DNA from: a virus
Taxonomy: Duplodnaviria; Caudoviricetes
IMG/VR virus record: IMGVR_UViG_3300036844_000041
Span: 1 to 54,200 of that record
DNA: 54,200 bases
Strand: one strand, 5' to 3'
The notes under the pieces were generated by a model. The model was given only the letters and a program-made list of their open reading frames with translations, searched no databases and was not told where the DNA came from. Below, piece after piece: positions 889 to 31,840 of the stretch. A program made the translations under genes and the position numbers. The stretch's first letter is position 1. Every line of letters begins with the position of its first letter.

Positions 889-2451
889 TCAGAACGGCCA
901 GTTGGCGTGTCGTCCCGCCTCGATCAGCGGGATCATCCGGAATGTGGCGTCGGTGAGCCCGCCGAACTCGGTCCGGTTCGGCGCGCCCGCGCTGAAGGCT
1001 GCCGGGCGGTAGCCGCCGAGGTTGAAGCCGTACAACGCCACCGACGGCGGGACCGCAGACGTGGCGCCGGAGTCCATCGTCTGCATGTCGGAGACGAGGA
1101 ACACCCGGTCGTGGCCGTTCCATGTGCGGCGCAGGCTCGCGGCGATCTGGGTACCGTGACCCACCTCACCGGTCCGGGACAGGAAGCGGCCGATCTCCTT
1201 GAGCGCGCTGGCGCCCTTCGGCACGTCGTGGCGGAACGCGTCGTCGGCGAAGCCGTACAGGTCGGCGCCGCACCGGATCGCCAGGACGACACCGAACACC
1301 GCGGCGGCCTTCGCCGGGCCCATCTTCGACCGGGCCGAGAACGACATGCTCGTCATCGACGCCGACGTGTCGATGAGCACGAGCGTCTTCCCGTCGAGCC
1401 GCGGCACGTTCGCGAGACTCGCCGACAGGGCCTTGTCCAGGGCATGACCCCAGCGCAGGGACGGGGCGTTCTCGTACGCGGCGAGGAACCGGAACGGGAA
1501 CTGGCGGGACCTCACCACCTGCTGCGGATCCGCGAGCCGCGCCGCGACCTGCTCGGCCACCGCATCAGACACGCCGGCCTCGTCGAAGTTGCGCAAGTTC
1601 CGCAGCAGCGCCATGTAGCCCATCGACGGGATGACTGCCTCCCACAGCTTTGCCTTGTCGACGCGGTCACCAGCCAGCGACAGTGCGTCCTCCCACGTCA
1701 TGCCAGCACGCTTCAGCGCCTCGGCGTCGAGAAGGGCCTGCGGCTCATCGCCGAGCGCGCGGGAGCGCATCAGCATGCGCGCGTCGACCATCGGCAGCCC
1801 GGTGATCTCGCCGCCCCGGCCGTGGCGCCGATCGAGGGCGTAGCGGAACAGCTCGCCCTGCCACGGTGCGACCGCGTCCGGGTGAACCAGGTCGATGACG
1901 TCGGCGAACCGGAAGCCCTTGCTGTCGGTGTCGTACTTGAGCAGGGCGTACTCGTTGTAGAGGCGGCCGATCGCGTCGGCGATGCCGCGCTTGACCGGCT
2001 TCGGGATCGCCCGGCCGAACCGGGACGTCCAGTAGGCGAGCAGCTCGCCGGGTTCGTCCGCGCGCTGCAGCACCGAGGCGATCACCTGGCGGGACATGCC
2101 GGCCTCGCCGCGCTTCAGCCGCTCATGCGCGAAGGCCGCCGCGCCGACCAGCGGGGCGGAGCGCATGTTGCCATCGGTGCGGAGCCACGCCAGGAGCCGG
2201 GACGTCCACTCCGAGTCCTCGGCCGTTGCCTGCCTCACGAGCGCCTCGTAGCGGGCGTCACGGTCGGTTGCCCGCTCGTAGAAGGTGTCCTCACCGACCA
2301 TGTTGGACACCGCGAGGAGGAACAGTTCGCTCTTCACGTCCCGGACGTAGCCGGGCGCGCCTTCGTGGGTGAGCGTGGACGGGGTCGACTCGGCGGCGAT
2401 CGGGCCGTTGCCCTTCGCCGGCCACGTCGCGGTCGTGTTGAACTTCGCCAT
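889..2451 (-). CDS. rsr: Ro60/Rsr TROVE-domain RNA-binding protein with C-terminal vWA domain
   Basis: TROVE motifs (THEGAPGY..ELFLLAV..FYE; LQRADEPGE; MGYMALLRNLRNF; SRQFPFRF) and vWA MIDAS motif (LIDTSASM ... GHGT ... SDMQ). Adjacent Y RNAs. Confidence 0.96.
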   Translation of the reverse strand: MAKFNTTATWPAKGNGPIAAESTPSTLTHEGAPGYVRDVKSELFLLAVSNMVGEDTFYERATDRDARYEALVRQATAEDSEWTSRLLAWLRTDGNMRSAPLVGAAAFAHERLKRGEAGMSRQVIASVLQRADEPGELLAYWTSRFGRAIPKPVKRGIADAIGRLYNEYALLKYDTDSKGFRFADVIDLVHPDAVAPWQGELFRYALDRRHGRGGEITGLPMVDARMLMRSRALGDEPQALLDAEALKRAGMTWEDALSLAGDRVDKAKLWEAVIPSMGYMALLRNLRNFDEAGVSDAVAEQVAARLADPQQVVRSRQFPFRFLAAYENAPSLRWGHALDKALSASLANVPRLDGKTLVLIDTSASMTSMSFSARSKMGPAKAAAVFGVVLAIRCGADLYGFADDAFRHDVPKGASALKEIGRFLSRTGEVGHGTQIAASLRRTWNGHDRVFLVSDMQTMDSGATSAVPPSVALYGFNLGGYRPAAFSAGAPNRTEFGGLTDATFRMIPLIEAGRHANWPF

Positions 2452-2460
2452 GATGCGAAA

Positions 2461-2490
2461 CGGCTCCCAACCGTGAGAGGTGGGGAGCCG
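2461..2490 (-). promoter_or_regulatory. GC-rich hairpin between Y RNA array and rsr start (terminator/attenuator; contains a GGGAG SD-like sequence)
   Basis: Minus strand reads CGGCTCCC-CACC...GGTT-GGGAGCCG then TTTCGCATC and the rsr ATG. Confidence 0.55.
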
Positions 2491-2496
2491 CAGCTT

Positions 2497-2652
2497 CAGA
2501 AGAGATGCCCGAGATCAAAGCGGGACCGGTGACCTAAAGCGCTCTGCCAACTGAGCTACGTCCCGCACGTGAGGCGGGACGACAGGACTCGAACCTGCGA
2601 CCTCTCGATCCCAAATCGAAGTAACCGAACCCTGCGCACCGGGCATCTTCTG
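2497..2652 (-). ncRNA. Y RNA 1 (YrlA-like) carrying a circularly permuted tRNA-Pro(UGG)-like domain
   Basis: Terminal stem (A)GATGCCCG/CGGGCATC(T); Ro-stem strands GGTGCGCAG and TTTGATCTCGG; anticodon arm TTCGA-TTTGGGA-TCGAG; variable AGGTC; T arm GCAGG-TTCGAGT-CCTGT; closed acceptor CGTCCCG/CGGGACG; D arm GCTC-AGTTGGCA-GAGC. Confidence 0.9.
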
Positions 2653-2661
2653 CAATTGTGA

Positions 2662-2786
2662 CTCCCCGAGATCAAAGGTGGGCGACGGGTGCCACACGCC
2701 ATCGTGGCTGCCGAACCCCAGGAGCGGGGTTGGCTGGATTCGAACCAGACCTCAGTGAAGGAACCGTCATCCAGCGCACCGGGGAG
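2662..2786 (-). ncRNA. Y RNA 2 (YrlA-like, degenerate permuted tRNA domain)
   Basis: Terminal stem CTCCCCG/CGGGGAG; GGTGCGCTG ... TTTGATCTCGG; GGTTCCTTC motif; T arm CTGG-TTCGAAT-CCAG; acceptor-like hairpin AACCCC/GGGGTT; D-like hairpin GCCAC/GTGGC. Confidence 0.85.
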
Positions 2787-2856
2787 GTGCTTGTTCAGTT
2801 GTAGCCCGGACGCCTACTCCGAGCGGTCCGGTCGTCAGGCGACACGGGCGTTTTGC

Positions 2857-2974
2857 GGCCTCCCGAGATCGGGGCGGTGTCCGGCAAGCGGGACTCGAAC
2901 CCGCAGCAATCGCCTTTACGGGGCGATTCGTCGGCCAATCGCGAAGTAACCGTCCACCTTCGCACCGGGAGGTC
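2857..2974 (-). ncRNA. Y RNA 3 with anticodon-arm-like (GUA) and T-arm module
   Basis: Terminal stem CCTCCCG/CGGGAGG; GGTGCGAAG ... GATCTCGG; GGTTACTTC; TCGCC-CCGTAAA-GGCGA, 5-nt linker, then GCGGG-TTCGAGT-CCCGC. Confidence 0.85.
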
Positions 2975-2987
2975 TGGAGTTGTTGTG

Positions 2988-3064
2988 TCCGCCGAGATCC
3001 AGGCGCTACGGGGTACGGGTCAAACTAGCAGTTTGAAGTAACCCCATGGCTTCGCACCGGCGGA
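2988..3064 (-). ncRNA. Y RNA 4 (minimal, no T arm)
   Basis: Terminal stem TCCGCCG/CGGCGGA; GGTGCGAAG ... GATCTCGG; GGTTACTTC; apical hairpin TCAAA-CTGCTAG-TTTGA. Confidence 0.8.
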
Positions 3065-3072
3065 ACTTCCCT

Positions 3073-3101
3073 ACCGTACACCGAACGCGGCCCGAGGTTA
3101 A
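3073..3101 (-). promoter_or_regulatory. Candidate sigma70-type promoter for the Y RNA-rsr operon
   Basis: TTAACC-17 bp-TACGGT, placing +1 near 3066, just before the 5' end of Y RNA 4. Confidence 0.5.
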
Positions 3102-3155
3102 ACCGAGTATCCGATGTGGAACGTGCCATCATCGCGCGGCCGTACGACATTCCGT

Positions 3156-3881
3156 TCAAGCCGCCCACGGCACCGTCTTGCCGTGCGCCTCAGCGAACTC
3201 CTCCGCCGTGAACATCCGACCACAGTGCATGCACTCATGATCGGTAGCGATGTCTTCACGCCACACTGCGGCGACATGGCAGTCGGGGCACGACTCCTCC
3301 GGGCGTTGGGAACCGCGCGGAGCCCAGCCTGACACCCGCCGGAGGGTGGAGTGGAGGTCTCGGATCTCCCGGGCGAACTCGTCGATGGCGGGGTGCTGGC
3401 TGCACATCTCCTCTACGCGCCGTACCAGCCACGCGACAAGGTCACCCACCTCAGCGCCTGGCAGATCGTCGGCTGGGCAGAAGGTCTCGTGCCAGTCCCG
3501 CACCCACGAGTCAAGTACCGCGGCGACGGATGGGTAGCCGGTCTGGTCGTGGCTCGGGTCGGACGTGCCGGCGCGCTGGGGTCGCGCCGGCGCGAGCAGG
3601 TCCAGGGCGTCCACGTTGACCGGTACCGGTGGATCGGTCGAGCCGGCCACCTTCGGGCCCGCGGACTGACCAGGCACGGGACCGGCGGGAAGCGCCATCG
3701 CGAGCGCGTCGCGTGCGCCGGTCAGGCCCGCGTCCCGCGCTTCGAGCTCGGCGCAGTAGTCCGGGATCTCCCACAGGATCCGGCGGAGCCAGCGGCGGCA
3801 CGGACCACAGCAGGGCGTCAGGTCCGGAAGCGGGTCTCGGCGGTGGCAGACGACGCAGGTGCCGGAGGGCTCGTCACTCAC
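3156..3881 (-). CDS. Zn-binding putative late-transcription regulator typical of actinophage genome ends
   Basis: N-terminal CxxC...CxxC, central PVNVDALDLL / LDSWVRDW block, C-terminal CPDC...CMHC. Confidence 0.55.
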   Translation of the reverse strand: MSDEPSGTCVVCHRRDPLPDLTPCCGPCRRWLRRILWEIPDYCAELEARDAGLTGARDALAMALPAGPVPGQSAGPKVAGSTDPPVPVNVDALDLLAPARPQRAGTSDPSHDQTGYPSVAAVLDSWVRDWHETFCPADDLPGAEVGDLVAWLVRRVEEMCSQHPAIDEFAREIRDLHSTLRRVSGWAPRGSQRPEESCPDCHVAAVWREDIATDHECMHCGRMFTAEEFAEAHGKTVPWAA

Positions 3882-22380: not shown

Positions 22381-23220
22381 TTAGGTGGAGCCCCGCTGCT
22401 CAGCGGCGGCGAGGAACGCTTCCTCGACGTCGGCGTGCAGCTCGGCGAGGGCATCGAACGCTTCCTGACTCGTCGCGAAAAGCGACGCGCCCCGCGCTGA
22501 GGTCACGACCTGACGCATCGTCGCGATCGCCTCAAGAGCAACCTCACCCCATGGGTCGAGGGGCTCCCCGGAGGGCGAGGGCTGACTGACCGCGTCGACG
22601 TCGGTCTCATCAGTGCGCACGGCATCAGCCGGGGCGTCTGTGGGGATTACGGCGGACGGTGGGTTAGAGCCACCACCGTCCGCCGCTGGGTCAGCTCCGG
22701 GGCTAGGTCGGCCCCGGTCCTGCTCCGACCCATCTGCCGACTGGCTCACGACGTCGGCAGCCGTCTGGGCCGGGAAGCCATCATGCCCGGCAGTCTCAGT
22801 TGTGACCTCTTCGGTCGACTGGGTGAGCGCGGGCACGACCGCGCTCGACCTCAGCGCGCGGATCGCCGCGGCGGTCGGTCGGCCGTCGGTGACCTCCACC
22901 ACCGCGGCCCAAATCTCAGCGCGCTCATCCTCGGGGAAGGCGAGCAGCTCGCGGGCCTGCCGCTCGTTCTGAACCGGAACCATGGTTCCGACGGCGGCCG
23001 CGTCCATGAGCTGCCGCGCGCGGCGGTCGGTGATGCCCCACTTCTTCGCGCAGTACTCGTCGAAGGTCCCGAACGCTTCGCGATAGAGCTTCCCGACATG
23101 CACCATCGCGAGCGCGTTGCCGACGTCCATGAACGTCAACAGCCCGGCGGCGATGACCTCTTCACACTGGTCCAGAAGTGCGCGCTCTTCGTCAGACAGG
23201 CGCGGCGCCAGCGCGGTCAT
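22381..23220 (-). CDS. DNA-binding protein (DUF3102-like N-terminus)
   Basis: VGNAL...KLYRE.FGTFDEYC..KWGI...ARQLM ... NERQAREL ... PTAAAI. Confidence 0.55.
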   Translation of the reverse strand: MTALAPRLSDEERALLDQCEEVIAAGLLTFMDVGNALAMVHVGKLYREAFGTFDEYCAKKWGITDRRARQLMDAAAVGTMVPVQNERQARELLAFPEDERAEIWAAVVEVTDGRPTAAAIRALRSSAVVPALTQSTEEVTTETAGHDGFPAQTAADVVSQSADGSEQDRGRPSPGADPAADGGGSNPPSAVIPTDAPADAVRTDETDVDAVSQPSPSGEPLDPWGEVALEAIATMRQVVTSARGASLFATSQEAFDALAELHADVEEAFLAAAEQRGST

Positions 23221-31738: not shown

Positions 31739-31766
31739 TCTATCAACTGTTGATCAACATGGGATG

Positions 31767-31840
31767 TGGCGCGAGCGGGACTTGAACCCGCGACCTCTGG
31801 GTTATGAGCCCAGCGAGCTACCAACCTGCTCCACCGCGCT
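31767..31840 (-). tRNA. tRNA-fMet (CAT), CCA not encoded
   Basis: Full cloverleaf; anticodon arm CTGGG-CTCATAA-CCCAG with 3 G-C pairs; A1:C72 mismatch; A11:U24. These are initiator determinants. Confidence 0.95.

Follow-up and report, generated by a model that had tools for sequence, protein, structure and literature searches.

Next to a Ro60 gene, the IMG/VR virus record IMGVR_UViG_3300036844_000041 (Duplodnaviria; Caudoviricetes; 54,200 bases, CheckV completeness 91%) carries a small RNA, here called Y RNA 1, in which all four arms of a tRNA-Pro(UGG) can be read in permuted order. The locus raises the question of whether such an RNA imitates a tRNA or is a precursor that could be cut and ligated into one, the two options offered by an earlier, sequence-only reading of the whole stretch of 54,200 bases (the window). 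Our analysis indicates that Y RNA 1 is likely a structural mimic, namely a phage Y RNA of the YrlA class that combines a Ro60-binding stem with an effector module copying the whole cloverleaf, including the anticodon stem-loop; such a mimic is far more likely than a pre-tRNA-Pro.

Y RNA 1 belongs to the YrlA class

Y RNA 1 extends from 2498 to 2650 on the minus strand, with approximate ends deduced from the terminal helix. In the predicted folds its 5′ terminus GAAGAUGCCCGGUG... is paired with ...CUCGGGCAUCUCUUC at the 3′ terminus, which lies about 47 nt upstream of the start (2451) of rsr on the same strand. The rsr open reading frame (ORF; 889-2451, minus strand) was identified together with its translation of 520 aa, and because this carries a TROVE domain (Pfam, E = 1.8e-20), the product is a Ro60/Rsr orthologue.

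The YrlA class was defined by Chen et al. 2014 (PMC4201824). Y RNA 1 has the features of the class: it lies beside a TROVE gene, its T arm is followed by a closed acceptor stem and then by a D arm, and a YUAY motif (UUAC, 2624-2621) precedes the V region. It is a phage-encoded YrlA-class Y RNA; the sequence-only reading had recognized it as a Y RNA. The Rfam YrlA model (RF02553) covers its T arm, acceptor stem and D arm (model positions 23-87) with 33.6 bits (E = 2.2e-4), under the gathering threshold of 69 bits; the score falls short since that consensus lacks an equivalent of the hairpin that is the main subject of this analysis. Among the 97 related modules with such a hairpin, described below, the twelve commonest words at the YUAY site (91 modules) include UUAC in 35, AUAC in 19, CUAC in 14 and GUAC in 2. 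The 5′ motif of the window, GGUGCGCAGG (2640-2631), is related to GNCGAAN0-1G without matching it literally, and the block is nearly invariant in 126 related modules.

Chen et al. 2014 flagged dimeric tRNAs as possible high scorers in YrlA searches. A junction of tandem tRNA genes mis-scored as YrlA was rejected: the two acceptor strands pair with each other, a terminal Ro-type stem is present, and the same layout is found again beside rsr in 126 modules.

Cloverleaf elements and likeness to tRNA-Pro

Read 5′ to 3′ along the minus strand, Y RNA 1 starts with the putative Ro60-binding stem's 5′ strand (2631-2650, containing CCCGGUGCGCAGG), whose CCGGUGCG.AG block is nearly invariant in the 126-module alignment. 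The 3′ strand of this stem (UCCCGCUUUGAUCUCGGGCAUCUCUUC, 2498-2525) was assigned by reading the sequence and from the folds, and relatives also carry its ...CCGNC..UUGAUCUCGGG motif. By analogy with known Y RNAs, this terminal stem would bind Ro60. It is followed by an inner helix, with CGGUUAC (2621-2627, containing the YUAY motif) paired to GUCACCG (2533-2527); covariation supports the helix (alignment A2), with GC 95, AU 11 and CG 4 at column 34-161 and AU 83 and UA 10 at column 38-153. Two near-invariant U's (2619-2620), which the sequence-only reading had taken as positions 27 and 28, stand at a three-way junction.

The putative anticodon stem-loop mimic comes next (2604-2618). In tRNA numbering it consists of 29-31 (CGA, 2618-2616), the loop UUUGGGA (2615-2609; U33 at 2614, UGG at 2613-2611, G37 at 2610) and 39-43 (UCGAG, 2608-2604), so that UUCGA (2620-2616) and UCGAG flank the loop. 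It continues into a 5-nt variable loop of class I type, AGGUC (2599-2603, with C2599 as position 48), and the T arm GCAGG-UUCGAGU-CCUGU (2582-2598), which was assigned by the Rfam YrlA alignment and by covariation. The closed acceptor stem (2559-2581) is formed by CGUCCCG (2581-2575), a 9-nt loop (2574-2566) and CGGGACG (2565-2559); it has 7 bp with C1:G72, or 8 contiguous pairs if C73:G-1 is included. U8 and A9 (2558-2557) and the D arm GCUC-AGUUGGCA-GAGC (2556-2541) were read directly and agree with Rfam, and G26, C27 and U28 (2540-2538) lie directly 3′ of the D stem. The anticodon-stem pairs of the window are C2539:G2604 (27:43), U2538:A2605 (28:42), C2618:G2606, G2617:C2607 and A2616:U2608, and the Levitt pair 15:48 is G2551:C2599. 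Each element that the earlier reading had listed between 2620 and 2541 was found in place, with all four arms in permuted order on the minus strand, and its caveat that base 73 would be C instead of A is correct (C2574).

Aligned with three genuine phage tRNA-Pro genes, the two halves of Y RNA 1 fall column for column on tRNA-Pro(UGG), the 3′ part of the window as positions 27-73 and the 5′ part as 1-28. When the 48 nt from 2621 to 2574 were compared by blastn with 50,697 phage records, the 60 best-ranked rows (80-91% identity) comprised 35 annotated as tRNA-Pro, one as tRNA-Thr and 24 in unannotated DNA. The 5′ part, i.e., the acceptor 5′ strand and the D arm, had no proline specificity: the 36 annotated rows among the best 40 included 13 tRNA-Pro and 10 tRNA-Ala, the rest being other isotypes. 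In genomic order ARAGORN called no linear tRNA at 2541-2650, and the Rfam tRNA model reached 21.9 bits at 2574-2641, under the cut-off of 29; no tRNA-Pro gene was called by ARAGORN anywhere in the 54.2-kb record.

A longer query matched the junction of two adjacent tRNA-Pro genes in Streptomyces phage Wakanda (73 nt, 80% identity) and an unannotated gap in a tRNA array beside a Ro-like gene in Gordonia phage Sixama. The gap holds a YrlA that scores 46.8 bits with the Rfam YrlA model and has the hairpin loop AUUGGGA. The proline-like sequence of Y RNA 1 fits the published proposal that YrlA originated from a tRNA dimer. The deposited annotation of Sixama (MN484601.1) contains neither this YrlA (L005:2505-2603) nor a tmRNA (L005:1599-2020; Rfam 88.1 bits, E = 1.8e-34), both of which belong to the array of tRNA genes downstream of the Ro-like gene.

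Anticodon-arm geometry in phage and actinobacterial YrlAs

We collected 80 viral loci and 80 loci of actinobacterial genomes that encode Ro60 relatives at 40-71% identity, the bacterial ones mostly from Micromonosporaceae, Streptosporangiales and Streptomyces. Modules were recognized by a T stem of at least 4 of 5 pairs with a T loop, followed by 8-60 nt with at least five pairs and no more than one mismatch, and then UA or GA and a D arm. The pattern yielded 131 modules. Without identical copies 126 were left, made up of 57 viral ones, 67 from actinobacterial genomes, the one from Sixama and the window. Copies of the window (L001-L003) were left out of the set, as were modules that failed the pattern, e.g., L083 and any in L009.

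The hairpin was scored in a fixed register of a 5-nt stem, a 7-nt loop and a 4-5-nt spacer to the T stem. At exactly this register 72 modules have 5/5 pairs, as the window does, and 25 have 4/5, giving 97 of the 126; shuffles of the same 22 nt reached 5/5 in 3.0% and 4/5 in 18.1% of cases. The 7-nt loop, which the sequence-only reading had expected homologues to keep, is thus conserved in 97/126, and its composition is that of an anticodon loop, with U33 in 94 of these 97 modules, A38 in 95, and C32 in 76 (U in 9, A in 12). Purines occupy position 37 in 90 modules (A in 68, G in 22), and C occupies it in 7. The triplet at 34-36 takes 33 different forms (GUU 21, CUU 8, GCU 7, UGG 6, UUU 6, and others). 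A hairpin with anticodon-arm geometry is a family trait of phage and actinobacterial YrlAs, and the option of a fuller mimic raised by the earlier reading holds. Furthermore, the Levitt pair in the 97 hairpin modules is GC in 56, AU in 39 and another combination in 2. Across all 126 modules the acceptor stem has 7 contiguous pairs in 37 and 8 in 43, and base 73 shows no conservation (U 39, C 35, G 34, A 18).

Many Ro60 loci hold two YrlA-type modules, one with the anticodon-like hairpin and the other with a shorter ACUUCA..GG(G)AAC.. segment at that place, e.g., L049 (950, 1207), L062 (1327, 1667), L060 (2149, 2315) and L081 (1945, 2354).

Covariation and the predicted chain break

To compare two competing structures, covariation was counted in a MAFFT alignment of all 126 modules. 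The inner pairs of the hairpin are well supported: 30:40 (column 43-55) is CG in 47, GC in 34, UA in 8 and AU in 6 modules, and 31:39 (column 45-54) is AU in 57, CG in 23, GC in 6 and UA in 2, with 48 and 31 double changes. The virus with the Ro60 closest to that of the window (L006) has the compensatory change UUCUA/UAGAG in place of UUCGA/UCGAG around an identical loop. The outer two pairs behave differently when the junction U's are used as partners. The first U with position 43 gives UG 81, UA 9 and other 29, with 2 double changes; the second with position 42 gives UG 61 and UA 52, with 0 double changes. Thus, the covariation that the sequence-only reading had sought in homologues is present for the inner hairpin pairs and missing for the outer two with UU.

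The same two bases covary with nucleotides that follow the D arm. Pair 27:43 (column 58-146) is GC 77, CG 18, UA 10, AU 7, GU 2 and other 10, with 35 double changes, and pair 28:42 (column 57-147) is GC 58, AU 51, CG 4, GU 4, UA 2 and other 3, with 57 double changes; a separate count reproduced both. The partners of A2605 and G2604 are therefore U2538 and C2539, the third and second nucleotides after the D stem, and not the U's at 2620-2619. For the whole structure the covariation score was 0.369, against 0.114 for shuffles (0 of 500 reached it) and at most 0.084 when the partners were slid by one to three columns. The cells of the T arm are 100% paired, with covariation in 4/5 pairs, and the D stem is 100% paired and almost invariant.

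By our own reading of its rows, the seed alignment in print, with M. smegmatis, phage ET08, S. roseum and G. polyisoprenivorans, is compatible with this three-strand scheme. The two U's are missing from the mycobacterial, Gordonia and ET08 rows, so that only the three-strand version can form there. The M. smegmatis row reads CCA-CUUCUAA-UGG, then AA and UGGUC, with A-UU after the D arm.

Since 42-43 covary with the 27-28 that follow position 26, covariation shows a predicted chain break inside the anticodon stem, between 28 and 29, where the putative Ro60-binding stem branches off, and not at the D/anticodon junction where the earlier reading had put it. That reading had also mentioned a weaker alternative pairing of CTTTA after the D arm with TCGAG; this is real for the two pairs 27:43 and 28:42, whereas the inner hairpin pairs stay as they were.

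Several observations weigh against this interpretation. The module set was chosen by a pattern of T loop, D arm and closed acceptor stem, so that divergent Y RNAs are uncounted, and the hairpin geometry is missing in 29 of the 126 modules. Position 26 does not covary with 44 (AU 29, AA 21, GA 19, GU 17). With the T, D and acceptor stems enforced, the self-contained 5-bp hairpin is favoured over the three-strand version (-65.4 versus -61.2 kcal/mol) and 27:43 and 28:42 have an ensemble probability of 0.0, while the unconstrained minimum-free-energy fold has neither the T arm nor the hairpin. The almost invariant U's at 2620-2619 demand an explanation, of which an alternative pairing with 42-43 is one. 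ARAGORN called a tRNA in 119 of 126 modules when permuted constructs were made from them (tRNA-Pro(tgg) for the window); this support was dropped, since 1046 of 1260 controls (83%) whose anticodon region had been shuffled were also called. Among public sequencing runs, a single one, flagged as a possible source of this DNA, contains the whole stretch. Two soil metatranscriptome runs of one study each contain a 151-nt contig that matches 2580-2645 (66 nt) with 5 differences, i.e., that of a relative, and other short run matches (35-45 nt) resemble ordinary tRNA genes, judged by the D-arm-like flanks of some; contigs of sequencing runs carry no information on RNA ends, strand or transcription. 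We gave covariation more weight than the energy models, and either version leaves a 5-bp stem with a 7-nt loop at this site.

Mimic or tRNA precursor

If Y RNA 1 were a working, permuted tRNA-Pro(UGG) gene, the Ro stem would be excised and 28 ligated to 29, or else RNase P would open the acceptor loop and, after CCA addition, the RNA would be charged with proline as two pieces. Both halves do align with genuine tRNA-Pro genes, including C1:G72, UGG, G37 and AGGUC; the 7-bp acceptor stem has the length that permits cleavage by RNase P and the addition of CCA in M. smegmatis YrlA (Chen et al. 2014), and processing of YrlA was raised as a possibility by Wang et al. 2018. However, the triplet is not kept in orthologues, where some of the 33 forms have A34 and C37 occurs in 7/97. 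In nine Dactylosporangium loci with identical stems, the pairwise difference is 61% at 34-36 and 72% at 37; four-fold sites of rsr reach 25%, the acceptor loop 29% and the stem 0%. For the 52 module pairs that are closest overall, taken from 86 modules with a 5-nt variable loop, it is 45% (34-36) and 48% (37) versus 1-5% in the scaffold. Positions 34-37 are the fastest-changing of the whole module, above rsr four-fold sites, and C32, U33 and A38 are kept (e.g., L096, L110, L113, L114, L118, L120, L121, L126, L131). A search of the 54.2-kb virus record, 91% complete, found no RtcB, RNA_ligase or PolyA_pol (CCA enzyme) domain, and a helix of about 30 bp branching from the anticodon stem would be expected to clash with the ribosome. 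Because neither the triplet nor base 73 is conserved and the record has no ligase or CCA-enzyme domain, a decoding tRNA-Pro is very unlikely, and the proposal of a precursor that is cut and ligated lacks support, the triplet differing even between congeneric hosts. With the loop frame kept and the displayed nucleotides free, a shape mimic appears to be the better reading, in which this freedom may be neutral or diversifying.

The published view would instead make the hairpin a long variable arm like that of class II tRNAs, with the Ro60 stem replacing the anticodon stem and with no equivalent of an anticodon loop. The V region is oriented as a variable arm by Chen et al. 2014, and Wang et al. 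2018 superposed a class II tRNA and report S. Typhimurium YrlA to have no anticodon loop. It also speaks for this view that a hairpin closing on itself is energetically favoured and that the helices go round the junction in the same order as anticodon arm, variable arm, T arm, acceptor stem and D arm. In class II tRNAs, just one or two nucleotides follow the variable arm. In Y RNA 1 the hairpin lies 5′ of the partners of 27 and 28, so it interrupts an anticodon-stem strand, and after it comes a variable loop of the standard 5 nt that ends in the Levitt partner C48; therefore it is predicted not to stand at the position of a class II variable arm. In addition, the stem and loop sizes together with C32, U33, R37 and A38 follow the anticodon-loop pattern, and we consider the published view improbable as far as this hairpin is concerned. 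A third possibility is that the hairpin is a decaying remnant of the upstream tRNA of an ancestral dimer, without a present role. The dimeric origin is already published, the window matches the Wakanda tRNA-Pro junction, and positions 34-37 change freely, yet stem length, loop length, U33, A38 and compensatory changes are kept in 97/126 modules although the Ro60 proteins are only 40-71% identical. This conservation pattern indicates probable purifying selection on the fold, and mere decay can hardly be the explanation.

Proposed model of the effector module

In the structural mimic that we favour, the 5-bp anticodon stem would be assembled from three strands. Positions 26-28 would follow the D arm as in a genuine tRNA, and after 28 the chain would leave for the Ro60-binding stem, of which it makes the 3′ strand; in the return direction, the stem's 5′ strand would lead into 29-31, the 7-nt loop and 39-43, then into the 5-nt variable loop, the T arm and the 3′ strand of the acceptor, with the acceptor end closed by a loop. 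The 3-bp hairpin would stack on 27-28:42-43 to give a continuous anticodon arm, leaving the Ro60 stem as a side branch; we infer this coaxial stacking because 41 and 42 follow each other with no linker, whereas the junction has linkers on its two other sides. Tethered to Ro60, Y RNA 1 would then offer the complete shape of a tRNA to a partner that binds tRNAs. Modules of this kind would form a subgroup in actinomycete chromosomes and their phages. Because the "anticodon" varies freely, Y RNA 1 is unlikely to be the gene of a decoding tRNA.

Such a module could descend from a tRNA dimer in which the upstream tRNA gave 27-73 and the downstream tRNA gave 1-28. This ancestor would explain why 42-43 have two possible partners, UU from the upstream copy and CU from the downstream copy.

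A more speculative extension, which we regard as rather doubtful, is that the anticodon-loop mimic is a fast-evolving specificity element. The frame of C32-U33...A38 would display the hypervariable 34-37, and the RNA would serve as a Ro60-tethered decoy, bait or guide for readers of anticodon loops. Such readers could be anticodon nucleases that belong to toxin or defence systems, enzymes that modify the loop, synthetases or a loop-pairing RNA, and the phage and host copies may be engaged in an arms race. Once opened by RNase P and supplied with CCA, as in M. smegmatis YrlA, the RNA would have both functional ends of a tRNA.

Other features of the Ro60 locus

About four Y-RNA-like modules stand in a row upstream of rsr on the minus strand, Y RNA 1 being the nearest to the gene. 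Each begins with CC(C/G)GGUGCG and ends with GAUCUCGG(G/C), resembling Y RNA terminal stems. The three further upstream (2662-2789, 2859-2973 and 2987-3066, boundaries set by eye) carry these words on the 5′ (CC(C/G)GGUGCG...) and 3′ (...GAUCUCGG(G/C)) strands; the first two have a T arm, and the motif GGUUACUUC occurs in 2/3. Within the third Y-RNA-like module, ARAGORN reported a "tRNA-Tyr (gta)" at 2879-2953 (minus strand). This segment has a non-permuted tRNA-like order, with a UUCG...CGAA hairpin, a hairpin with the loop CCGUAAA and a T arm, and a Ro-type stem encloses all of it. The Rfam tRNA model gives it only 22.1 bits, and it is probably not a genuine tRNA.

The interval from Y RNA 1 to the start codon of rsr contains a hairpin GGCUCCC...GGGAGCC (2462-2489, minus strand), which the terminator scan did not class as a terminator; it may separate Y RNA 1 from the mRNA or hold the ribosome-binding site. 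A scan of 2400-3250 found no promoter-like site, and its single terminator-like match is on the plus strand, not the strand of the Y RNA. The ORFs neighbouring rsr matched only HTH, DUF6221, DUF433 and HNH domains. Elsewhere in the record ARAGORN called a 91-nt tRNA-Gly(acc) (22649-22739) and a tRNA-Met(cat) (31766-31840), both on the minus strand.

The best Ro60 matches come from Pilimelia, Jidongwangia, Actinoplanes and Dactylosporangium. The locus of Dactylosporangium sucinum (L096, 2338-2390) has a chromosomal YrlA with the hairpin stem and acceptor strands of the window and the loop UUCGGGA, in which CGG is likewise a proline triplet. The Ro60 matches and this YrlA point to a probable Micromonosporaceae host.

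Comparison with known systems and significance

Like the YrlA RNAs of M. smegmatis and phage ET08, Y RNA 1 lies beside rsr and has a putative Ro60-binding terminal stem, T arm, closed acceptor stem, D arm, YUAY motif and Levitt covariation, together with a hairpin that separates YUAY from the T arm. Its acceptor stem has 7 bp, as in M. smegmatis YrlA. Unlike in these RNAs, in the window two extra U's precede position 29, GGUGCGCAGG replaces GNCGAAN0-1G, and about four modules stand in tandem. According to Chen et al. 2014, the hairpin after the conserved YUAY is the "V" stem-loop, and in vivo RNase P cuts M. smegmatis YrlA, whose acceptor stem has 7 bp, and CCA is added to it. The hairpin as such is therefore not the departure from canonical YrlA that the sequence-only reading had taken it for, and Wang et al. 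2018 regard it as a long variable loop like that of class II tRNAs.

The preprint of Wang et al. 2018 gives the crystal structure of the Salmonella YrlA module (6CU1), which lacks an anticodon loop, and likens long variable loops to class II tRNAs; it cites the model of Sim and Wolin, in which YrlA arose from a dimeric tRNA transcript, and notes the likeness to circularly permuted tRNA genes. The module of the window resembles that of S. Typhimurium in its L-shape determinants, namely the T and D loops, U8-A9 and the pyrimidine that ends the variable loop, and in both the strand that precedes the variable loop joins the one following the D arm to make the top of the anticodon stem. However, the Salmonella helix runs straight into the Ro60 stem, with a kink at UA and no loop, whereas the window inserts a 3-bp stem and a 7-nt loop that complete an anticodon arm and make the Ro60 stem a branch.

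In permuted tRNA genes, described for red algae and one archaeon (via Wang et al. 2018), the 3′ half is upstream of the 5′ half and all four arms are recoverable, the acceptor stem is first a closed loop, and the transcript ends pair next to the anticodon stem, as in Y RNA 1. Those genes, in contrast, yield decoding tRNAs with fixed anticodons via a splicing endonuclease and a ligase. In the window the triplet is not conserved among relatives, no such enzymes were found in the record, and the paired ends are, by analogy, a probable Ro60-binding site.

The tRNA-Pro(UGG) genes of Streptomyces phages Wakanda and JimJam and Gordonia phage Sixama are 80-89% identical to Y RNA 1 over 27-73, with an identical loop UUUGGGA, and its 5′ part (1-28) differs from Wakanda tRNA-Pro 2 by two letters and two gaps. 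Unlike in these genes, in Y RNA 1 the halves are swapped, base 73 is C and the Ro60 stem stands between the parts; the 5′ part matches tRNA-Ala, tRNA-Met and others about equally well.

Earlier work had thus already covered the permuted topology, an origin from tRNA and the hairpin itself. What our analysis adds is an interpretation in which the "V" stem-loop imitates an anticodon stem-loop and the break falls at 28/29, the wide conservation of this stem-loop in phage and actinobacterial YrlAs, the hypervariable "anticodon", and a copy whose 3′ part is still recognizable as tRNA-Pro(UGG). We found no paper that treats the V stem-loop as an anticodon-arm mimic, in a literature search that did not cover subscription papers or Sim and Wolin 2018. 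In practical terms, the Rfam YrlA model at its threshold misses the actinobacterial and phage subgroup.

The window gives unusually direct sequence support for the dimeric-tRNA origin, with its 3′ part still a tRNA-Pro and both copies of 27-28 surviving. Wang et al. 2018 expected the partner of the tRNA-like module to recognize the elbow. If many YrlAs present an anticodon stem-loop of the correct size, the range of candidate partners would extend to proteins that recognize a tRNA at both its ends. According to a published guess (Hughes 2020), YrlA and tRNAs compete for an anticodon nuclease; if the mimicry is true, this would become directly testable.

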